Program-made: the position numbers and the translations under genes
Notes under the pieces: model-generated
The model's input: the letters and a program-made list of their open reading frames with translations, nothing else
Told to the model about the DNA's origin: nothing
The model's database searches: none
Shown here: positions 308 through 56,545 of the stretch, piece after piece
How the letters are laid out: every line of letters begins with the position of its first letter
Position numbering within the stretch: the first letter of the stretch is position 1
IMG/VR virus record: IMGVR_UViG_3300026097_000805
Location: 64,001-128,000 of that record
Origin: a virus
DNA: 64,000 nucleotides
Strand: one strand, 5' to 3'

Positions 308-2977
308 TTACTCTCCAAAGTCAAACAAACTGTTAAATGTAGTGTGCTGCTTTGTATCTTCTAGTGGATAGTTCAACACACCAATCAAGTTGTCTAACTT
401 ATTATCAATAATAGTTTCTGCCATTGCCGCATCATCAAATGGCAACTCTTTGAACCAATCGGGCAAACGCAACTCATCTGTAGGATACGCAACACTTGTA
501 TAGCCTAGCGGATTTTGCTTGAGCTTGCAAACAATAACTTTCATACCATCTACAATCTCTTGAGAGTATTTGTCTCCATTCATGCGCTTGAGTGTATTCC
601 AATTAATACTTGCTCTAACGTGTCCGGGCATATTCGCTTTGCCTTGCTTTTGCTCCAGTCGCTGATAGTGTCCGATCTTGTTTGCACGTTTGGGCGAACC
701 TTTTTCCCAACCCGGCATTTCTTGAAACTCTTTGCGGAACTGTGTAATACGCTCTAGTACATCTGCCTGCGGAACATCTGTTAGCACCATTAGCAATAGT
801 TCTTTCAAGAAGTCCTGCATAAACACAGGTGTATCCGAACGGCGCAAGTCCAAGCCCATGGCCTTTACCTTACCCGGACTTCCTTCTTGGTCTGTTCTAA
901 AGCCTTCGTTATCTACTACTAGTGCCGCATAACGCTTCTTAGTAATATACAAACCGCTTACAGCAACAATCTCACGTCCTGCTGCAATTACGTCTGCACG
1001 ACTTTTAGGACAGTGAAACGCACGACCCATAAAGTCAACAAACGTTGTGTCTACTTGCTCACAGATTTGATCATACAGCGCAATAGCCTTTTCAGTCGAC
1101 CATTCTAGTTTACCAGACTCTACGTCATCTTTTAGAATAGGCCATGCACTAAAATACACAGAGTCAGTATCACCGTAAATAACAGCCTTGCCTACATGAT
1201 CATACTCGCCTGCAATAGTCTTGTTTGCTTCTGCACTCATGTGCTTAACAATCTGTCTACCTGTAAGTGTAGTTGACTGTCCGATACGTTTATCGAAGAA
1301 TCTACAACCAGGATTGAGAATCGCACCATACAAACTGTTCAAGTTAATCTTCTTAACTAACTGTCGTTTGTCCCAGTATTCAATCTCAGCATCGTTCTTA
1401 GCATCCTTTGCTTTTTTCAGCATCTTCTGCATGTCTTTACGTTCAGCATACCAACGCTTTAGAATACCTGGAATTACACCTTCAAACTCAGTTGTAAATA
1501 TAGTACCGTTAGCACTAAGCATCCAAGGCATATGTGAGTCGAATATAAGTTGATAAATCTCCGCACCTGATAGTACATCCGACCTACCATCCTCCCAATC
1601 AACTGTAAGTGCAACATCCTTTCGTTGATCCATAACTGCTTCGTATTCTTCTGTCGCAAATCTACCTTCCCAACTGCCTGCAAAGCTCTTTTTCTTTAGT
1701 GTCATGTCTTCATGCACACGAGCATCGCTGATCTCTGCTCGAATCTGTCCTACAATAGTTTCTGGCGCCATGTTCAACGCACGAATCACACTAGGATACA
1801 GTGAATTCAAGTCCATTGACGCCACCCACTTGTGTAAGCCCTTCTTAGGAAACGCAACATACGCACCCGCTGCCTGTGTGTTCTCGTCGTCACGTTGTTT
1901 GCGATTGGGTACTTGTAGCCCACGATTGTGTGCTTCGTTGATAATGCCTTGCTCTGTGACAGCAACAGCGCCCATTGTAGTTTGTAATAGTACTGTATTT
2001 TCGTGTGCAACTGTATTACTCAGGTCAATGAAGCGCAGTTTCTTGTCTAGCTTGTCAAGTAGTGCAGTATCCTGAATATTATATTCAATAAACTTACGGA
2101 AATCGTTGTTGTACAGTTGATCCAGTGTACCTTCATATGGTACTTTGTTTTCACCTACTTCAATCTCGCCGATAGCATCCAGTCGATATGTGTGACGTTC
2201 TTCATAGGTGTACTTGCGATACAGTTCAAGACTGTCCAAGTGTACACGACCTACTAGATCAAACGTGACAGCTTGCTTCCCATATTTTTCATATTCACGC
2301 TTCTTGGGCAATTGTCCCCATAAGCAGAATCTACGTGTATCATCTTTGCTTAATACACGCATTGTTCTATTAACAGTGTAGGGAATATCATAACCTTCAC
2401 TGTTCCAGCCACTTAAAATATCAGCATCTTCAATTAGTGTCAAGAAAGTGTCAATCATCTCACTTTCTTTTTCAAACAACATTACATTGTCAATGCCTTC
2501 AAGTTCTACCTTTGCTTGCTCCATAGTAAGTGTCTTAGGCGGAACAGCAAGACACACCATTGTTTCCATCCACTGCAAATATACAGATATTGATGTAATG
2601 GGCATAAACGGATCCGCAGGATCAGCAAAGCCTCGTTCCGGATCAAAGTCCGTCTCGATATCGAAGAACGCAATGTTTAGTTTGGGTGCATCTTGATTGA
2701 GATAGTGTTCGCTTAAACACTGAAAGATTGGATTTACATCGCTTTCAAAAAGTGTTTTATCTTTGTTGATAGCAACTTCTTTGCGAAAGTCTTTTGTGTT
2801 CTTACACACAATGCGAGATAACGGATCGCCGTACACACTCTTGTACTTGCCGCGTTCGTCCTTGTAATAAAAAGTATATTTTGCTTGATATTCTTGGAAG
2901 TGTCTTTTGCCGTCTCGTCGTTCTACGACACGGATAATATCTTGATCGCGATCGAACATCGCGTCTACATATGGCAT
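308..2977 (-). CDS. Family B DNA polymerase (T4 gp43-like)
   Basis: Exo I FFDIETD, region II DLNSLYPS, region III KINLNSLYG, region I YGDTDS, KKRY; 889 aa with no intein-sized insertion. Confidence 0.97.
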   Translation of the reverse strand: MPYVDAMFDRDQDIIRVVERRDGKRHFQEYQAKYTFYYKDERGKYKSVYGDPLSRIVCKNTKDFRKEVAINKDKTLFESDVNPIFQCLSEHYLNQDAPKLNIAFFDIETDFDPERGFADPADPFMPITSISVYLQWMETMVCLAVPPKTLTMEQAKVELEGIDNVMLFEKESEMIDTFLTLIEDADILSGWNSEGYDIPYTVNRTMRVLSKDDTRRFCLWGQLPKKREYEKYGKQAVTFDLVGRVHLDSLELYRKYTYEERHTYRLDAIGEIEVGENKVPYEGTLDQLYNNDFRKFIEYNIQDTALLDKLDKKLRFIDLSNTVAHENTVLLQTTMGAVAVTEQGIINEAHNRGLQVPNRKQRDDENTQAAGAYVAFPKKGLHKWVASMDLNSLYPSVIRALNMAPETIVGQIRAEISDARVHEDMTLKKKSFAGSWEGRFATEEYEAVMDQRKDVALTVDWEDGRSDVLSGAEIYQLIFDSHMPWMLSANGTIFTTEFEGVIPGILKRWYAERKDMQKMLKKAKDAKNDAEIEYWDKRQLVKKINLNSLYGAILNPGCRFFDKRIGQSTTLTGRQIVKHMSAEANKTIAGEYDHVGKAVIYGDTDSVYFSAWPILKDDVESGKLEWSTEKAIALYDQICEQVDTTFVDFMGRAFHCPKSRADVIAAGREIVAVSGLYITKKRYAALVVDNEGFRTDQEGSPGKVKAMGLDLRRSDTPVFMQDFLKELLLMVLTDVPQADVLERITQFRKEFQEMPGWEKGSPKRANKIGHYQRLEQKQGKANMPGHVRASINWNTLKRMNGDKYSQEIVDGMKVIVCKLKQNPLGYTSVAYPTDELRLPDWFKELPFDDAAMAETIIDNKLDNLIGVLNYPLEDTKQHTTFNSLFDFGE

Positions 2978-3005
2978 TTATTTCTCCTTGTTGATTATGG
3001 CCAAC

Positions 3006-3278
3006 TTAACCATCTACATGCTCTTTTGAGCGAGACTTGTACCATTGTACCAGTCCGTAAATACTTAGCGCAAACCAAAATATCTCAATAATAATACTGG
3101 ATAGGTTAGGTTTGAAGTATAAGTTAATGCCAAGCAGTACAGCAACAACCATGTTATTGAAGCTATACCAAAAGCCCTTGGCATCTAGTTTGCCAAACTG
3201 TAGTAAGGCAAACGTTCCAACTAGTATGACAACACCTACGTTGCCTACAAAGTCGCTCCATTCATAAGTGTATTCCAT
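3006..3278 (-). CDS. Small multi-pass membrane protein (CBU_0592-like)
   Basis: Three hydrophobic segments; D-x-VGNVG...LLQ..K..YS..N pattern recalled for this family. Confidence 0.55.
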   Translation of the reverse strand: MEYTYEWSDFVGNVGVVILVGTFALLQFGKLDAKGFWYSFNNMVVAVLLGINLYFKPNLSSIIIEIFWFALSIYGLVQWYKSRSKEHVDG

Positions 3279-49698: not shown

Positions 49699-51003
49699 TT
49701 ATATTTTTTCGTTAGGCTCAAAGCCTCTGAATGTTTTGAATCTTGGAAATCGCAAACTATATGTACCATCTTGATTTTGTGTAATTGCATCTGCTCTTAC
49801 TTCGACTAAATTGCCGATAATAGCATTGCGATTATTCCAAAACTCGTCCCGATGAACATCAGAAAAGCCACTACCCACGTTAACGCGAATATCTTTTCCA
49901 TCATCGATCCCCTCACAAACGAATGCTCCAAGACGTCCTTGATTCCTGCCAGTGCCTTCTTCAACTTCCTTTACCTCCAGTGTGACTTCAATAAATGGTT
50001 TTGCTTTGAGCCAAGCATGTGTACGCTTGCATTCATAAGGTGCGTCAATGTCTTTGATCATAACACCTTCATATCCACCGTCTACAGCCGCTTTATTAAG
50101 CTCTACAAAGCGAGCTTCGCCTTCTGGTGTGTCTAAGTCTACTTCTTCCCAATCCAACGCTTGTACGTGCTCTAAGACGTCCTTGTGATCTTCTACCCAG
50201 TGCTTGGTGATCTCACTACGGAAGCTCTGAGGCTTATCCCACGAACCATTCTGGAAACAACCTAGCGGAATAGTATCAAACAAGTGCAGTACAGCATCGT
50301 TTGCTTCTACATTGTCTTTGCGATGCACTTGCTTCATAAGGTCTTGGAAGTTAGCACTCATTACTTCACCGTCTAACACTAGCGGATAAGGTACAGGATA
50401 CTCTGCAACAACTGCTTCAAGTTCTTCAATGATGTGCCCAAAGTTGTGAAACTGTTTTCCGTTGCGACTAAACATTTCTACTTTGTTGCCGCGAATAATT
50501 GTAATAACACGAACACCATCAAGTTTGATTTCAATCTGTTTCTTGCCACGCATCTTCTTTTCGTGCTTGAGACTGTCATGTGCAAGCGCACAAGTAAACA
50601 CAGGCACAGTACCTGGCACTACTTTGTTCACAGTCTTTTCACTTACACCACAGCGCAGGTCTTTGATAAGGATACGTCGATACCAGTCATTCCATTGTTC
50701 CTTTGTTGCTACTTCCATAGCAAGTAGGATGGCATCGCGAGCAGCGTGTCCAGTTGCATCTCTGTTGATCAACAAGTCAGTAAGTTTTACAAAGTTATCC
50801 CAGTGCAAGCCTTGTCCTGTATCTTCTTCTTTGACAGGCACTTGTTTTACACCAAAAGTCACAAGTGGGTCCAATGCCATACGCAAGCCTTCAAAGAACT
50901 CTGGAAGTCCTTCTTTATGTGCGGCAAGAATAATATCTTCTTTGTTAAGACGACTGTTGTGTATTTCTAATTGTCGTATAATTTGATCTGGCTGGGTTCG
51001 CAT
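49699..51003 (-). CDS. ATP-dependent DNA ligase
   Basis: EIKLDGVR (KxDG), LDGEV, LFD, EGVMIK, WLKAKP, SLRFPRF; start at MRTQPD. Confidence 0.95.
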   Translation of the reverse strand: MRTQPDQIIRQLEIHNSRLNKEDIILAAHKEGLPEFFEGLRMALDPLVTFGVKQVPVKEEDTGQGLHWDNFVKLTDLLINRDATGHAARDAILLAMEVATKEQWNDWYRRILIKDLRCGVSEKTVNKVVPGTVPVFTCALAHDSLKHEKKMRGKKQIEIKLDGVRVITIIRGNKVEMFSRNGKQFHNFGHIIEELEAVVAEYPVPYPLVLDGEVMSANFQDLMKQVHRKDNVEANDAVLHLFDTIPLGCFQNGSWDKPQSFRSEITKHWVEDHKDVLEHVQALDWEEVDLDTPEGEARFVELNKAAVDGGYEGVMIKDIDAPYECKRTHAWLKAKPFIEVTLEVKEVEEGTGRNQGRLGAFVCEGIDDGKDIRVNVGSGFSDVHRDEFWNNRNAIIGNLVEVRADAITQNQDGTYSLRFPRFKTFRGFEPNEKI

Positions 51004-51182
51004 CTTTGTTCTGGCTCCATGTCTAATGATTCGTGAAAGTCGAACACTGTCCAACCTTGTAATGCATACATTGTAGCATGAGAAGGCGTACAGAGCAAGA
51101 TTTTTTGCTCCATATACCCTGCGGTTTCTACTCGAGCGTGTTCTACAAATCGCTCGATACTGTATAGTCTGTGTTCAATCAT
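50967..51182 (-). CDS. Hypothetical protein
   Basis: Fills the gap between flanking genes. Confidence 0.5.
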   Translation of the reverse strand: MIEHRLYSIERFVEHARVETAGYMEQKILLCTPSHATMYALQGWTVFDFHESLDMEPEQRCEPSQIKLYDN

Positions 51183-51327
51183 CCCAATCAATTTTGTTGT
51201 ACTTAGGTTTCTTTTTGATCTTGTTTTTGATCACTTGTGGACGGAAGGGACCTTGTGGATCCCTTACCGCCTTTGCTTCAAAGTTGCGTCTCTTGGGTGC
51301 TTGAGGACGTCTTAGTTTCTTGGACAT
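51175..51327 (-). CDS. 50-aa basic protein, ArfA-like candidate (not in ORF track)
   Basis: MSKKLRRPQAPKRRNFEAKAVRDPQGPFRPQVIKNKIKKKPKYNKIDWDD; TAATG-coupled. Confidence 0.65.
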   Translation of the reverse strand: MSKKLRRPQAPKRRNFEAKAVRDPQGPFRPQVIKNKIKKKPKYNKIDWDD

Positions 51328-51866
51328 TATACAACCCTTAGATCCTCAATGTTTATAGGAGTGTAGTCAATATGCTCTACACAAACACATCTGTGATGTT
51401 CTGTTGGACTTGGATTCTGATGAATATGTCCGTGAACATTTAACAACTGCTCACCTGCCTTGTTGTGACGATAGCGGTACAGTCCACTAGGGTCCAACGG
51501 AATGTGACTCAACAACAACCCATGCTCGTGAAACTCTCTCCACACAACAACCTTGGTGACAAGTCCGTTCTGAATAAAGAACTTGGCATCATCGTGATTG
51601 CCAAGAACTAATCTTTTAGAACCATTCAGTCTGGCCCATAAACTTCTAAAAGTGTCTTTATTGCCAAAAAACACATCACCCAAGTGGTATACAATATCAC
51701 CGGGCTTGACAACACGGTTCCAGTTTTCGATCATTGTTTCGTCCATTTCTTCAACAGAACTAAAACGATCGCCACGAACTAACTTACCTGTGCGTGAATC
51801 CACAAAGTTAAGGATATTGGCATGTTGAAAGTGTGTATCACTAATTAACCAAATATCTCTAGACAT
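51327..51866 (-). CDS. Calcineurin-like metallophosphoesterase
   Basis: SDTHF, HLGD, GNHD, SHIP, HGHIH. Confidence 0.92.
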   Translation of the reverse strand: MSRDIWLISDTHFQHANILNFVDSRTGKLVRGDRFSSVEEMDETMIENWNRVVKPGDIVYHLGDVFFGNKDTFRSLWARLNGSKRLVLGNHDDAKFFIQNGLVTKVVVWREFHEHGLLLSHIPLDPSGLYRYRHNKAGEQLLNVHGHIHQNPSPTEHHRCVCVEHIDYTPINIEDLRVV

Positions 51867-51895
51867 GTTGCCCTCCTTTCTTAAGTGTTAATAGT

Positions 51896-51924
51896 ATTAT
51901 ATGTGTATTTAACTTGTTTGTCAA
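51896..51924 (-). promoter_or_regulatory. Consensus sigma70 promoter
   Basis: TTGACA-17 nt-TATAAT; TAAATA in the spacer. Confidence 0.85.
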
Positions 51925-51931
51925 CCAATAG

Positions 51932-52007
51932 TGGTGCTAGAGGACGGAATCGAACCGCCGACACGAGAATCTTCAATACCCTGCTCTACCGACTGAGCTA
52001 CTCTAGC
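51932..52007 (-). tRNA. tRNA-Phe(GAA)
   Basis: 76-nt cloverleaf, encoded CCA; U-U mismatch in the anticodon stem. Confidence 0.9.
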
Positions 52008-52011
52008 ATTA

Positions 52012-52082
52012 TGGTAGTAAATGATAGAATCGAACTATCTCTTCAGGCTTATGAGACCCGAGTCCGGACCACCGGATTTACT
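52012..52082 (-). tRNA. Atypical tRNA(CAT), Met or Ile2
   Basis: Acceptor AGTAAAT/ATTTACT, T-loop TTCGATT, CCA; shortened D region; 71 nt. Confidence 0.75.
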
Positions 52083-52083
52083 A

Positions 52084-52166
52084 TGGAGTGCAAGACAGGA
52101 CTCGAACCTGCATAGTCTTACGACACGGATTTGCAATCCGATGCATAACCATTCTGCCACTTGCAC
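52084..52166 (-). tRNA. tRNA-Cys(GCA) with long variable arm
   Basis: Anticodon GCA, U73, CCA; 13-nt variable region GTC-GTAA-GAC-TAT; 83 nt. Confidence 0.9.
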
Positions 52167-52167
52167 A

Positions 52168-52242
52168 TGGCTGGGGCGGAAGGACTCGAACCTCCAATCG
52201 ACAGAATCAAAATCTGTTGCATTACCAATTATGCTACACCCC
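52168..52242 (-). tRNA. tRNA-Gln(TTG)
   Basis: U1-A72, G73, CCA. Confidence 0.95.
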
Positions 52243-52248
52243 AAAACT

Positions 52249-52324
52249 TGGTGGACTCGCTCGGATTCGAACCGAGGACCAATTGATTAAAAGTCAACTG
52301 CTCTACCAACTGAGCTACGAGTCC
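52249..52324 (-). tRNA. tRNA-Lys(TTT)
   Basis: Canonical 76-nt cloverleaf, CCA. Confidence 0.96.
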
Positions 52325-52325
52325 A

Positions 52326-52409
52326 TGGTGGGGAAGGTAGGATTCGAACCTACTCACTTTACGAACTGATTTACAGTCAGCCGCGCCTCTCCAACTGCGC
52401 CGCTTCCCC
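52326..52409 (-). tRNA. tRNA-Tyr(GTA)
   Basis: Class II cloverleaf, CCA. Confidence 0.95.
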
Positions 52410-52410
52410 A

Positions 52411-52486
52411 TGGTGTCAAAGGATGGACTTGAACCATCGACCTAACGGTTATCAGCCGTTTGCTCTACCAACTGAGCTACATTGAC
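52411..52486 (-). tRNA. tRNA-Ile(GAT)
   Basis: Canonical cloverleaf, CCA. Confidence 0.95.
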
Positions 52487-52491
52487 AAACT

Positions 52492-52565
52492 TGGCACCGG
52501 TCCAGGGAATCGAACCCCGAGTTTCAGTTTTGGAGACTGACGTGTTGCCATTACACTAGACCGAT
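52492..52565 (-). tRNA. tRNA-Trp(CCA)
   Basis: Anticodon arm TCAGT-CTCCAAA-ACTGA, G73, CCA. Confidence 0.93.
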
Positions 52566-52586
52566 ATAAAACTTTTTCCTCCTACT

Positions 52587-52627
52587 AAAAATAAAAAACC
52601 CCTGCTAATATCTCTACTAGCAGGGGT
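52587..52627 (-). terminator. Intrinsic terminator of attenuator 2
   Basis: ACCCCTGCTA-10 nt-TAGCAGGGGT followed by TTTTTATTTTT. Confidence 0.9.
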
Positions 52628-52651
52628 GCGTTAAATAACTTTTCTTGACTA

Positions 52652-52729
52652 CTATGTCAAAAGCACACTCCTGCCTTCGCTAAACCAGCGAATGCAATAT
52701 TGTTGAATATGTTTCATCATTGTAGTCAT
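52652..52729 (-). CDS. Leader peptide 2, MTTMMKHIQQYCIRWFSEGRSVLLT (25 aa)
   Basis: Between a promoter and a terminator; codons 19-22 complementary to the terminator 5' arm; codons 4-16 match the downstream tRNAs. Confidence 0.85.
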   Translation of the reverse strand: MTTMMKHIQQYCIRWFSEGRSVLLT

Positions 52730-52766
52730 TTCTATTTCTCTTTGTTTAATTTCTTAGTATGTGTAT

Positions 52767-52795
52767 ACTATACACGTTTATTTATCTTCTGTCAA
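52767..52795 (-). promoter_or_regulatory. Composite promoter for leader 2 and tRNA array 2
   Basis: TTGACA-17 nt-TATAGT with GATAAATA (52779-52786) in the spacer. Confidence 0.85.
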
Positions 52796-52810
52796 CCGTT
52801 TATTTTACTT

Positions 52811-52834
52811 TTTGACAATTTAGATACAATATTT
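52811..52834. repeat. Trailer arm of the 24-bp inverted repeat enclosing tRNA array 1
   Basis: TTTGACAATTTAGATACAATATTT is the exact reverse complement of 54211-54234. Confidence 0.92.
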
Positions 52835-52838
52835 TAAA

Positions 52839-52913
52839 TGGTACACCGTAGGGGAATCGAACCCCTCTTTCCTGCGTGAAAGGCAAGCGTCCTAACCGAT
52901 AGACGAACGGTGC
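52839..52913 (-). tRNA. tRNA-Glu(TTC)
   Basis: Canonical cloverleaf, CCA. Confidence 0.95.
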
Positions 52914-52918
52914 ATATA

Positions 52919-52995
<77 letters not shown>

Positions 52996-53001
52996 AATAA
53001 T

Positions 53002-53094
53002 TGGCGGTGAGGGTGGGATTTGAACCCACGGAACGCTATTAACGTTCGTCTGTTTTCAAGACAGGTGCAATAAGCCGGACTCTGCCACCTCACC
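53002..53094 (-). tRNA. tRNA-Ser(TGA)
   Basis: Class II, long variable arm, G73, CCA. Confidence 0.95.
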
Positions 53095-53101
53095 AATAAA
53101 T

Positions 53102-53387
53102 TGGCAGCCCGTTAGCCACACACCGTTGGAATGATGCTTGTGACCCCTACACTGTAATAGCCCTGCTGTCTAGTTTATCAGTCTAGGGCACAAACTATTG
53201 TTTAGGTATAGGACTTTTGCTTCTCACTAAAGACCGCCACGGACCAACGGACGGCACTCTTTAGAACTAACACTAATGCAAAGAGCAAGTGGTTAACCAA
53301 TGCATCGACCTAGTTACTTGATAGACTATATCATATCTTTCGCTACTATCGGGCGGTTCAGGCCCTTATCGCCGTCTCTTTCGAGCT
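53102..53387 (-). ncRNA. Unidentified ~286-nt structured RNA ending in CCA
   Basis: 5' AGCUCG pairs with 3' CGGGCU before G-CCA; several internal stems; sits in a tRNA slot of the array; no listed ORF. Confidence 0.6.
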
Positions 53388-53397
53388 AGTGTGTAGT

Positions 53398-53473
53398 TGG
53401 TAGCGGGAGCAGGAATCGAACCTACCTCAGTCCGGCTTATGAGACCAGTGAGTTCCCAGAACTCTATCCCGCA
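53398..53473 (-). tRNA. Initiator-like tRNA-fMet(CAT)
   Basis: 1:72 mismatch (U-U), GCGGG acceptor, CCA. Confidence 0.85.
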
Positions 53474-53476
53474 ACT

Positions 53477-53550
53477 TGGAGCGGATACCGAGAATCGAAC
53501 TCGGACGATCACGTTGGCAACGTGAGAGGCTACCTTTACATCATATCCGC
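53477..53550 (-). tRNA. tRNA-Gly(GCC)
   Basis: U73, CCA. Confidence 0.93.
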
Positions 53551-53554
53551 AATA

Positions 53555-53630
53555 TGGTGGAGATACGCGGGATCGAACCGCGGACCTGAAGCTTGCAAAG
53601 CTACTGCTCTCCCATCTGAGCTATATCCCC
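53555..53630 (-). tRNA. tRNA-Ala(TGC)
   Basis: G3-U70, CCA. Confidence 0.96.
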
Positions 53631-53635
53631 ATTAA

Positions 53636-53712
<77 letters not shown>

Positions 53713-53719
53713 TTTAATA

Positions 53720-53802
53720 TGGTGCCCTGGGGGAGACTCGAACTCCCACTCCGAAGAACTGGTACCTAAAACCAGCGTGTCTACCAATTCCACCACCAGG
53801 GC
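53720..53802 (-). tRNA. tRNA-Leu(TAG)
   Basis: Class II, CCA. Confidence 0.95.
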
Positions 53803-53808
53803 AATTTA

Positions 53809-53883
53809 TGGTGCTGATGGAGAGAATCGAACTCCCAATCTACGCATTACAAGTGCGTTGCCTTACCATTCGGCCACATCAGC
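53809..53883 (-). tRNA. tRNA-Thr(TGT)
   Basis: Canonical cloverleaf, CCA. Confidence 0.95.
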
Positions 53884-53889
53884 AATATT

Positions 53890-53964
53890 TGGAGCGGGTG
53901 GACGGGATCGAACCGACGACACCTGACTTGGAAGGACAGTGCTCTACCACTGAGCTACACCCGC
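53890..53964 (-). tRNA. tRNA-Gly(TCC)
   Basis: U73, CCA. Confidence 0.95.
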
Positions 53965-53968
53965 AATA

Positions 53969-54057
53969 TGGCGGAGCGACTGGGAGTCGAACCCAGTGAA
54001 CGCGGTTAGCGTTCTACGGATTAGCAATCCGCTGCATTACCATCCTGCCCCCGCTCC
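53969..54057 (-). tRNA. tRNA-Ser(GCT)
   Basis: Class II, G73, CCA. Confidence 0.95.
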
Positions 54058-54127
54058 GTATGTGTTTGGCTCTACCCTCCCCTCTGGGCGATTTAACTAA
54101 CGAGGCATCTTGCGTTAGTACCATGTT

Positions 54128-54202
54128 TGGCTCCCGGTGTTGGAATCGAACCAACCAATGACGGATTAACAGTCCGCTCCCCCACCTTGGGGGCAACCGG
54201 GA
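54128..54202 (-). tRNA. tRNA-Asn(GTT)
   Basis: U1-A72, G73, CCA. Confidence 0.93.
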
Positions 54203-54210
54203 ATAAACCT

Positions 54211-54234
54211 AAATATTGTATCTAAATTGTCAAA
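54211..54234. repeat. Leader arm of the 24-bp inverted repeat enclosing tRNA array 1
   Basis: Exact reverse complement of 52811-52834. Confidence 0.92.
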
Positions 54235-54261
54235 GAGCGTGTAGCAAGTTCTTCTTGCTAC
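54228..54261 (-). promoter_or_regulatory. rrn-like antitermination leader (boxB-like hairpin plus boxA-like motif)
   Basis: GTAGCAAG-5 nt-CTTGCTAC then CGCTCTTTGACA (10/12 to E. coli rrn boxA TGCTCTTTAACA). Confidence 0.65.
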
Positions 54262-54272
54262 GTTATGTATAT

Positions 54273-54301
54273 ACTATACTACTTTATTCTGTGCCTGTCA
54301 A
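54273..54301 (-). promoter_or_regulatory. Sigma70 promoter directly upstream of tRNA array 1
   Basis: TTGACA-17 nt-TATAGT. Confidence 0.85.
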
Positions 54302-54321
54302 CTACTATTTTGCCTTAAACC

Positions 54322-54358
54322 AAAAAAAAACCTTCCTTGCTGTGTGCTTGGAAGGTTT
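54322..54358 (-). terminator. Intrinsic terminator of attenuator 1
   Basis: AAACCTTCC-13 nt-GGAAGGTTT with a 9-U tract. Confidence 0.85.
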
Positions 54359-54384
54359 TTGGAATCTTGTTAGCTAATGCTCGC

Positions 54385-54474
54385 TTACGTTCCGCAACCC
54401 TCCAGGCATAGACTACCCGCTGGATTTTCCGATCCAGGTGTCCATGTATCTAATGTGAGTACGAATGTAAACAT
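54385..54474 (-). CDS. Leader peptide 1, MFTFVLTLDTWTPGSENPAGSLCLEGCGT (29 aa)
   Basis: AAGGA SD; codons 24-27 complementary to the terminator 5' arm; codons 9-22 match the downstream tRNAs. Confidence 0.85.
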   Translation of the reverse strand: MFTFVLTLDTWTPGSENPAGSLCLEGCGT

Positions 54475-54504
54475 TGAAAGTTTTTTCCTTATTAACTATG
54501 CATT

Positions 54505-54512
54505 TATTTATC
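54505..54512 (-). promoter_or_regulatory. Late-promoter-like box GATAAATA upstream of leader 1
   Basis: Same 8-mer precedes many structural genes in this window; resembles T4 late TATAAATA. Confidence 0.65.
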
Positions 54513-54563
54513 ATCTAGATAAAAAACACGCACATATTGGCTTATTTTTGGAACTTTGCTGTG

Positions 54564-55160
54564 TTAATATCTCTTAGGATGAATAAATGAAGAAATAGAA
54601 AATCTACCATCTATTGCATCATCCGACTGCATTTTTACCGGTTCTACATTATGTATTAAACAACTGGGAAATAGCACAGTTCTTGCATTCTTCAGTTGAA
54701 TATTGTTGCCTGCAATATTAAAATCTCCACCTGTAAACTTTTTTGGTTCCTTAAATAACCATGTAATACACGACATCAAAGCTGTATCTGCATGAGGCTT
54801 GTAATAGTCGCCTTCATTGTACCTTGATAACAACACGTCATACTCGAACTCACAAAATAAGAATTCAAAAAAATTACTTTTGCTTGCTAAACTTTGCTTT
54901 ATCTGTAGATCATAAAGTTTTTTATGAACATTAATAATATCACTATATTCCGGATTTATCACTTGATGAATCCAGATTCCTTTATTCTTTTTTAAATCTT
55001 GGCCTGTTAGATCAATTGCTGACCCAGTATTATTAGGGTTAAGCAACTTTGAAGACAAAAATGATACTTCTTTCCAAATTGCAGAAATTTCTTTGTCGTC
55101 AAAAAAATTGTCTATAATAGCAACAGGTAAGTCTTTTACTTTAAGGATTTGTAAATGCAT
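54564..55160 (-). CDS. 2OG-Fe(II) oxygenase (prolyl-4-hydroxylase-like)
   Basis: YYKPHAD, FTGGDF, HNVEPV, GRFSI. Confidence 0.88.
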   Translation of the reverse strand: MHLQILKVKDLPVAIIDNFFDDKEISAIWKEVSFLSSKLLNPNNTGSAIDLTGQDLKKNKGIWIHQVINPEYSDIINVHKKLYDLQIKQSLASKSNFFEFLFCEFEYDVLLSRYNEGDYYKPHADTALMSCITWLFKEPKKFTGGDFNIAGNNIQLKNARTVLFPSCLIHNVEPVKMQSDDAIDGRFSISSFIHPKRY

Positions 55161-55165
55161 TTGAT

Positions 55166-55612
55166 TTACTTACTAAATTTTAGCGTATAAGTCTTACCAT
55201 TGTTCCAAAACTTAATTGTGCTATGACTATAAACTTCTCGCTGGCGTTCTTCATATCGTGTTTCGATCGAGCATTGACGCTCCGTACGATAGCCTGTGAC
55301 GCTTTGCTTGGACTGATTTTTATCAGCGGCAATCATACCTCCAATAACGGCGCCAGCTGCCGCACCTTTGTCGTCACCCGAAGCACCTTTGCCAATAAGG
55401 CCACCAATAATCATACCACCTAGTACATCTCCTGCACTAGCACCACTTCCAGTCTGGCCGTACACAGGTACCTGTACATCCTTGCATACCTCTACACGAT
55501 ATGGCTCTTGTTCGATTACAGTTTTATAATGATCTTGTGTGACACCACGAACATTTTCTGCAAGTGCAGGAGTTGCAATTAACATACACGAAGCAACAAT
55601 AAATTTTCTCAT
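55166..55612 (-). CDS. Exported glycine-zipper protein
   Basis: Signal peptide; GDVLGGMIIGGLIG...AAAGAVIGG. Confidence 0.8.
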   Translation of the reverse strand: MRKFIVASCMLIATPALAENVRGVTQDHYKTVIEQEPYRVEVCKDVQVPVYGQTGSGASAGDVLGGMIIGGLIGKGASGDDKGAAAGAVIGGMIAADKNQSKQSVTGYRTERQCSIETRYEERQREVYSHSTIKFWNNGKTYTLKFSK

Positions 55613-55962
55613 TTTATATCCTCTCTATACCATCCAGTATTGTATTCATCTACAATGTTTACATTATTTACACGATCATAACGGAAACTGCGCCATCCTT
55701 TAGCATTTACGTCCCATACACTCACAACAGCATCTGAGACTTTTCGAACAGCTTTTTGAGTCATAGGATCTTTCTTAGTTGCTGGCGGTTTCATGTCTTC
55801 ACGCAAGGTACAGGTCATAACACGCTTGTCACCGTCTAATTTAGTAAAGTCAACTACGAGCACATTTTGTTCTAGTAATCTTTCTAAATCTTCACGTACA
55901 GGAATACCTTTGAGTGTTGCTACTGTCTCAGCGACTTGAGACGACTTTATCTGCGAATCCAT
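55609..55962 (-). CDS. SH3/Sm-like (WYL_2/DUF2693-like) protein
   Basis: [15 protein letters not shown] and [13 protein letters not shown]. Confidence 0.75.
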
Positions 55963-56545
55963 TTTCTACTGCTTCCTCTGCTGTTAAGAACGTATCAAAC
56001 TTCATAGTTTCAAACAGTTCTTCATAAGACTTGTTTGCTGTGTTGTGTTTAACATACAGCTCTGTAAGACGCTTGTTGATCTTCTGCGACTCTTCGTAAT
56101 GACGTTTTGCATCTTCAAACTGTAGCTCTTGAACATGCACACTGCCACTTGTACCTGGAGTACCTGAGCTTACACGATGGATCATCGTACGGCTTTCTGG
56201 CAATACAACTCGCTTTCCTGGCGTGCCTGCTTGTGCAAGGAACGAACCCATTGAACATGCTTGGCCCATTACAATAGTGCGTATATCGGGCTTAATAAAC
56301 TGCATAGTGTCGTAAATAGCAAGTCCTGCTGTGACAGCGCCTCCGGGCGAGTTAATGTACAAACTAATTTCTTTGTCACTGTTTTGACTTTCTAGATATA
56401 GCAACTGTGCTACAATCAAATTGGCCATATTATCTTCTACTGGACCGTTCAACATCACAATACGGTCTTTCATCAATCGGCTGTAAATATCGTATGAACG
56501 TTCGCCGCGACTTTCTTGTTCTACTACCATTGGAATTAGTGGCAT
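55928..56545 (-). CDS. clpP: ClpP protease proteolytic subunit
   Basis: [23 protein letters not shown] (Ser), MIHR (His), FDTFL (Asp). Confidence 0.96.

Follow-up and report, generated by a model that had tools for sequence, protein, structure and literature searches.

The window analysed here is a stretch of 64,000 nucleotides, bases 64001–128000 of a single virus sequence of 179,647 bp (38.6% G+C). tRNA genes were located with ARAGORN, which returned 20 in the window, all on the minus strand between 54202 and 51932. Array 1 (54202–52839) comprises 12 of them, 11 elongators plus Met, in the order Asn GTT, Ser GCT, Gly TCC, Thr TGT, Leu TAG, Pro TGG, Ala TGC, Gly GCC, Met CAT and, after a 303-nt gap, Ser TGA, Asp GTC and Glu TTC; the second array (52565–51932) comprises 8 (Trp, Ile, Tyr, Lys, Gln, Cys, Met and Phe). 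The gap between tRNA-Met and tRNA-Ser TGA (53095–53397) gave no convincing Rfam match, and a sub-threshold sX4 match at this place overlaps a tRNA. Directly 3' of the last tRNA lies a perfect sigma70 consensus promoter (12/12; 51896–51924), which drives a metallophosphoesterase gene (51866–51327). Outside the window, ARAGORN reported a permuted tmRNA-like gene on the minus strand with the tag ANDNYAPETALAA (G000:C1:154692-155076); such a gene in a phage is of interest beside a system that depends on stalled ribosomes.

Upstream of array 1 a short open reading frame was found at 54474–54385 (leader ORF 1), with its ATG at 54474 and TAA at 54387–54385; like all elements of the two leader regions described below, it lies on the minus strand. 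It has 29 codons plus the stop and encodes the peptide MFTFVLTLDTWTPGSENPAGSLCLEGCGT (29 aa). A Shine-Dalgarno-like AAGGA (54486–54490) precedes the ATG by 11 nt, and AAAAGGAAAG is kept at this position in homologs. The 11-nt spacing is longer than optimal and counts against reading the ORF as the leader of an attenuator. Codons 9–22 (54450–54409; DTWTPGSENPAGSL) form a list of the array-1 tRNAs. Coverage was scored with a strict wobble rule (G34 reads C/U, U34 reads A/G), under which array-1 tRNAs can decode 13 of the 14 codons and none of the 11 elongator anticodons lacks a codon. When every stop-free 14-codon window in the six frames of the 179,647-bp genome was scanned (174,219 windows), this block was the sole one with 11/11 coverage; 10/11 was reached by 4 windows. 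The codon list is thus confirmed as an observation and is far beyond chance. An earlier, sequence-only reading of the same DNA had claimed that the leader names the 11 elongators of array 1 down to the isoacceptor and that TGG is the one foreign codon; the first claim survived the strict rule, the second is true (array 1 has no Trp tRNA), and all coordinates given in that reading were correct. CCT needs no U-U wobble for coverage because CCA is also in the list. Classical attenuators carry runs of 2–8 regulatory codons; here each array-1 tRNA is represented by 1–2 codons only, which was counted against the attenuator reading. The coding-selection signal at codon positions was only mild (variable sites 4/1/6).

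The ORF is followed by an intrinsic terminator of the form AACCUUCC/GGAAGGUU, with a G+C-rich stem of 8–9 bp and a U9 tract (−13.8 kcal/mol). It is missed by a simple terminator scanner because its loop measures 13 nt. Its 3' arm GGAAGGTT is at 54336–54329 and the T9 run at 54330–54322; the terminators of homologous leaders form hairpins of −17.8 to −18.5 kcal/mol with U6–U8. Folding divided the leader into four regions. Region 1 (54457–54472), in the 5' part of the ORF, is predicted to pair with region 2 in the untranslated nascent RNA. Region 2 (54396–54404; RNA UGGAGGGUU, DNA TGGAGGGTT) corresponds to codons 24–27 and is the putative antiterminator strand, region 3 (54349–54357; RNA AACCUUCCA, DNA AACCTTCCA) is the 5' arm of the terminator, and region 4 (54322–54336) is its 3' arm GGAAGGUU running into the U9 tract. 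A 9-bp pairing of TGGAGGGTT with the terminator 5' arm AACCTTCCA had been proposed in the sequence-only reading, and the calculation bore it out: the duplex of regions 2 and 3 reached −15.6 kcal/mol, a value matched by none of 2000 shuffles (mean −7.7, sd 2.0).

Nascent prefixes up to nt 122 folded into one long 1:2 hairpin (−32.8 kcal/mol) between the 5' part of the leader ORF and the region around UGGAGGGUU; prefixes of nt 126–140 adopted the 2:3 antiterminator, UGGAGGGUU with AACCUUCCA (−36.7 to −38.3 kcal/mol); and the full-length leader contained 1:2 together with the 3:4 terminator (−48.7 kcal/mol). As modelled, co-transcriptional folding of the leader is that of the four-region trp attenuator (1:2, 2:3, 3:4). 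Ribosomes were represented by a mask with a footprint of 28 nt on a transcript cut before the 3' arm. In this model the terminator 5' arm was sequestered to 0.84–0.90 with the ribosomal A site at codons 1–19, and sequestration fell to 0.2–0.4 with it at codon 22 to the stop, so that the previously proposed effect of a ribosome at the stop as against one in the list block holds in silico. Stalls at the last two list codons, AGT and CTA, partly cover region 2 (occupancy 0.55 and 0.34). The step at the end of the list block was present in 12/12 leader variants modelled. When the full leader was folded to equilibrium under ribosome masks, neither the window nor L089 showed switching: the terminator always won (P about 0.99), and the switch must therefore be kinetic, as in trp.

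BLAST searches with 54000–55200 and with the neighbouring phosphoesterase gave no close cultured-phage relative, and the relatives are marine metagenomic contigs. Two strict back-translated leader-1 patterns had zero matches; relatives were gathered by a conserved 22-nt anchor just 5' of tRNA-Asn together with a leader pattern, which gave about 30 loci, and homologous leaders were present on about 20 related metagenomic contigs. At least 12 distinct variants of leader 1 (for example MKLTLTSVEYSTLGSSNPGADVCGVCES and MKLVSNNLSTWTPGSENPAGDVCLEVSRS) were distinguished. All carry the GATAAATA motif or GGTAAATA, the AAGGAAAG element, the ATG and the list block, and they further share the position of the stop and the terminator, followed by 1–3 sigma70-like promoters. 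Their C-terminal peptides vary (VCGVCES, LHEGWDD, VCSEGWGGGN, VCGVCKVK and, by a frameshift in L094, TCRGLQS), and despite this drift the G-rich strand that can pair with the terminator arm, GGGGUUUG or GAGGGCUGG, is kept. The combination points to an RNA-level constraint on the 3' part of the ORF and a codon-identity constraint on the list. Column-wise covariation on alignment A1 was dropped in favour of energy cross-tables because the loops of the three terminator types are of unequal length and the types fall out of register. The significance of the antiterminator was moderate for the L073 type (p about 0.04) and weak for L084 and L089 (p about 0.2).

Leader ORF 1 could instead be an ordinary gene for a small protein that has a terminator of its own and matches the array as a by-product of a composition rich in small residues. 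This would account for a conserved ORF with a start and a Shine-Dalgarno-like motif, and many variants do have a CxxC-like pair of Cys residues. In L076, L098, L094 and L084, however, these residues are replaced along with the entire C-terminus, with the RNA pairing kept; the list block is unique among 174,219 windows, and a second leader, unrelated to the first, matches the other array in like manner; composition alone explains neither the complete coverage nor the split between two arrays. We therefore consider a small protein gene of this kind very improbable.

The second leader belongs to a sister unit at 52598–52795, in which promoter (52795–52767; 11/12), leader ORF (52729–52652; MTTMMKHIQQYCIRWFSEGRSVLLT) and terminator (52627–52598; 13 bp plus U-tract) are followed directly by the second array, with about 25 nt between terminator and tRNA-Trp. 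Codons 5–16 of the sister leader cover 8/8 tRNAs of the second array, and this 12-codon block is unique in the genome (1/190,313 windows). No promoter was found between the terminator and the tRNAs of this unit, and the sister leader is the cleaner example of the same design. Its two apparently foreign codons, CAT and CGC, match tRNA-His GTG and tRNA-Arg ACG, which are found in the same array of L006, L083 and L089. The two leaders split the tRNAs between them: in the window as in L083 and L089, a leader covers its own array to 100% but only 2–5 anticodons of the other one (Fisher tests of leader codons against arrays, p = 0.019, 0.0008 and 0.009). The leader-2 family has five different terminator arms, each with its own complementary upstream strand (p 0.0005 to 0.05), and in energy cross-tables the cognate pair of arm and strand was usually best.

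The sequence-only reading had named homologous leaders whose codons do not track array content as an outcome that would refute the list, and on this point the relatives mostly upheld the list. Coverage of the leader's own array 1 was complete for the complete arrays of the window (11/11), L083 (13/13), L089 (12/12) and L076 (14/14). In relatives whose array 1 includes tRNAs for Tyr and Val, leader 1 has codons for Tyr and several for Val; array 1 of the window lacks both of these tRNAs, and its leader 1 is without a Tyr codon. In L083, tRNA-Tyr is in array 1 and not in array 3, leader 1 has TAT, and leader 2 has ATT at the place where others have TAT. The array of L071 holds Trp, Lys, Pro, Ser TGA, Gln and Cys, and its leader (LKTVQQSSLQNWCSPSRRGMS; GTG start, first residue Met) contains K, Q, S (4 times), W, C and P, with H, I, Y and F lost; in L017 an array of Tyr, Trp, Cys, Arg, His and Phe is preceded by a leader reading ...MHNMFYCIRLW.... 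In array 3 of L089, an 87-nt gap between tRNA-Ile and tRNA-Lys proved to be a divergent tRNA-Tyr(GUA)-like gene that ARAGORN had missed; its acceptor stem and anticodon loop are intact and its T arm is aberrant. Exceptions to tracking are TGG in leader 1 of the window, the TAT kept in leader 1 of L089 without a Tyr tRNA in array 1, and L072, where the array has three tRNAs and the leader names many others besides; L093 and L095 cover 10/11 and 12/14. From these exceptions it follows that the arrays change faster than the leaders. No comparable leaders were found in distant phages with tRNA arrays (L044, L049 and L046).

In L071, L072, L078, L085 and L087, which are without leader 1, the second tRNA of array 1 is called as a tRNA-Ser with the anticodon ACT in place of GCT; A34 in a tRNA-Ser is unusual.

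The same hardware might have another output, namely a response to amino-acid starvation or translation stress, an effect on precursor stability or processing, or a small RNA or peptide acting in trans. A stalled ribosome cannot distinguish a missing from an uncharged tRNA, as is established for trp and his attenuation, and a terminated leader RNA of 150–200 nt would be abundant. That products of an attenuator (peTrpL and rnTrpL) can act in trans is shown in two papers (PMC7298713, PMC7968998). Against such outputs, the list fits the tRNA isoacceptors of the adjacent array, including both Gly and both Ser boxes, which is hard to explain by amino-acid sensing alone, and it shifts as tRNAs move between arrays; the lack of conservation of the C-terminal peptide argues against a peptide acting in trans. 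We give these alternative outputs little credence.

Between the leader-1 terminator and array 1 lies a sigma70-like promoter (TTGACA-17-TATAGT; 54273–54301; 11/12). Because it stands below the terminator, attenuator 1 gates only transcription that arrives from upstream, and the caveat already attached to the sequence-only reading, that the attenuator can only add to promoter-driven expression of array 1, was correct. Counterparts of this promoter are kept in all leader-bearing relatives, and in six related contigs without leader 1 such a promoter is the sole upstream element. The promoter and the six leader-less contigs together mean that the regulatory weight of attenuator 1 may be small. The function of attenuator 1 remains unproven and is probably auxiliary to the constitutive promoter.

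Transcription from upstream would probably start at GATAAATA (54505–54512). No sigma70-type match of at least 9/12 was found ahead of leader 1. Over the genome, GATAAATA has 16 occurrences on the minus (coding) strand against a single one on the plus strand; of the 16, 13 sit 19–49 nt 5' of an ATG. It is kept 5' of the leader-1 homologs (once as GGTAAATA) and is also present inside the spacer of the leader-2 promoter. As far as motif counts can tell, it fits a phage-specific, T4-late-like promoter element and is a candidate for the promoter of the leader transcript. Late transcription from this motif had been suggested earlier; strand bias and spacing to the ATG favour the promoter role, and the later timing is only an inference.

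These data bear on the possibility that leader 1 is a vestige, an attenuator that once controlled array 1 and has been bypassed since it gained one or more strong promoters downstream, now serving as terminator of the upstream operon without meaningful effect on tRNA levels. The promoter between terminator and tRNAs, present in the window and in every leader-1 homolog (in some as 2–3 copies), the six contigs that retain the promoter alone, and arrays that outpace the leader in change (L093, L095) are all compatible with it. Against a vestige, the list block, the start, the position of the stop and the complementarity of region 2 are all retained in at least 12 variants whose neighbouring spacer and C-terminus drift; this retention indicates continuing selection, and the conserved promoter-like GATAAATA upstream suggests a dedicated leader transcript. 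A bypassed attenuator is accordingly regarded as unlikely, if still conceivable.

The leader was compared with five defining features of trp/his/ilv-type attenuators that can be assessed from sequence. It has a short ORF with a start and a ribosome-binding site, both kept in at least 12 homologs; its codons match the genes to be controlled (11/11 anticodons in 14 codons); an intrinsic terminator lies between the ORF and these genes; and an antiterminator that depends on ribosome position and excludes the terminator is present, in silico only. Sole dependence of the downstream genes on read-through, without an intervening promoter, is not met by leader 1 and is met by the sister leader. Leader 1 thus meets 4/5 of these features.

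The likeness to the ilvGMEDA (Ile/Leu/Val), thr (Thr/Ile) and trp attenuators lies in a short translated leader, codons for several amino acids and an intrinsic terminator, and in mutually exclusive 1:2, 2:3 and 3:4 helices among which the position of the ribosome picks the fold. In contrast to these systems, the phage leader precedes tRNA genes and not genes of biosynthetic enzymes, its list names 11 tRNA species, mostly once each and isoacceptor-specific, in place of runs for 1–3 amino acids, and it is phage-encoded and, in this copy, has a promoter below the terminator. The pheM leader of the E. coli pheST (phenylalanyl-tRNA synthetase) operon is a leader-peptide attenuator of a decoding component and is similar in that the decoding machinery is controlled by the speed at which its own codons are read; it differs in regulating a synthetase and sensing one amino acid or tRNA, not tRNA genes and not many species. 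T-box riboswitches likewise respond to the state of one particular tRNA by choosing between terminator and antiterminator. They bind the tRNA directly by a specifier codon and the T-box sequence, without translation, whereas the phage element has a Shine-Dalgarno motif, an ATG, a conserved frame and a stop. In the small-ORF sensing of tRNA-Cys cleavage by VapC4 in Mycobacterium tuberculosis, reportedly described by Barth et al. (PNAS, 2021), ribosomes that stall in a small ORF upstream also report the depletion of a tRNA; that circuit differs in responding to host stress, in sensing one tRNA and in having protein-coding targets, with neither a phage array nor a multi-tRNA list. No description of leader-peptide control of tRNA genes was found in full-text searches, whose coverage left out most subscription journals and the older work on phage T5.

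A T-box or other Rfam leader or riboswitch was rejected, as an Rfam search of 51000–56000 (E ≤ 1) returned only tRNAs and sub-threshold chance matches; among the latter, a PyrG_leader match on the leader-2 terminator (E = 0.23) was far below threshold.

Taken together, leader 1 is probably a ribosome-stalling transcription attenuator that lists the downstream tRNAs and senses their supply. This interpretation is supported by structure modelling and comparative data; the function is inferred, and neither termination nor read-through has been shown. In the mechanism we propose, a transcript would enter from upstream, either from the promoter-like GATAAATA or by read-through of the gene at 55160–54564, and a ribosome would start translation at 54474. 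If all listed aminoacyl-tRNAs were plentiful, it would reach codons 23–29 or the stop and cover UGGAGGGUU, the hairpin AACCUUCC/GGAAGGUU with its U9 tract would form, and the transcript would end at about 54322. If any listed codon were slow, possibly with the corresponding host tRNA scarce, cleaved or uncharged, the ribosome would stall within 54450–54409; a stall there would melt the 1:2 hairpin and leave UGGAGGGUU free to pair with newly made AACCUUCCA, no terminator would form, and RNA polymerase would continue into array 1. The new phage tRNAs would relieve the stall, which amounts to negative feedback. With the promoter at 54301–54273 below the terminator, such a switch adds to the expression of array 1 and does not govern it; it might matter mainly when the sigma70-type promoter is unused, for example later in infection.

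For the marine phage clade as a whole, a leader peptide can be envisaged that acts codon by codon as an OR-gate for the supply of each tRNA species of an array, with the array transcribed on demand and the tRNAs themselves providing negative feedback. Array 1 would then have an early constitutive mode (sigma70-type promoter, rrn-like leader) and a later demand mode driven by GATAAATA; we regard this wider model as about as likely as not. If it is true, the phage would respond to a host codon mismatch, a tRNA shut-off or an anticodon-nuclease defence only in case of need. The purpose of tRNA genes in phages and the way they are controlled are matters of long-standing debate, and the proposed roles include codon compensation and escape from tRNA-cleaving defences (for example PMC10264068). 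A leader that lists the tRNAs of its own array implies a phage that monitors decoding speed and makes tRNAs on demand, and with such control leader-peptide attenuation would reach beyond amino-acid metabolism to the tRNA pool itself. As a sensor with termination at one defined site, leader 1 is directly testable. A short ORF whose codons correspond to the downstream anticodons could further serve as a signature for annotating tRNA operons in uncultured phages, and the leader itself as a compact part for synthetic biology, reporting on the supply of many tRNAs simultaneously.

Several other elements were seen near the tRNA genes of relatives. A second tiny ORF with a strong Shine-Dalgarno motif follows the terminator in L076 and L082 (between leader-1 terminator and promoter) and in L017 (1441–1497); the peptides MTTEEYWQWIHANVQ and MCYNDVSEYWKWMKSNFQ share an EYWxW motif, and the window has no such ORF. 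A conserved element of about 140 nt (GGCTCGTGAGGCC..GCAAGC..AACCTTGT..GATACTAGTAAC..) lies directly 5' of tRNA genes in L007 (1905–2056) and L017 (832–979), where other relatives have a leader or promoter. In L006, an HNH-endonuclease-like ORF (301–615) is inserted directly 5' of tRNA-Asn with a duplicated tRNA 5' end nearby, suggesting that leader 1 was displaced there by homing. The same contig contains, around a tRNA-Ser-like gene in the array, a stretch of about 1.1 kb (1990–3090) whose RNA is apparently highly structured and rich in CGCAAG/GCAAGG loops; it may be a large ornate RNA.
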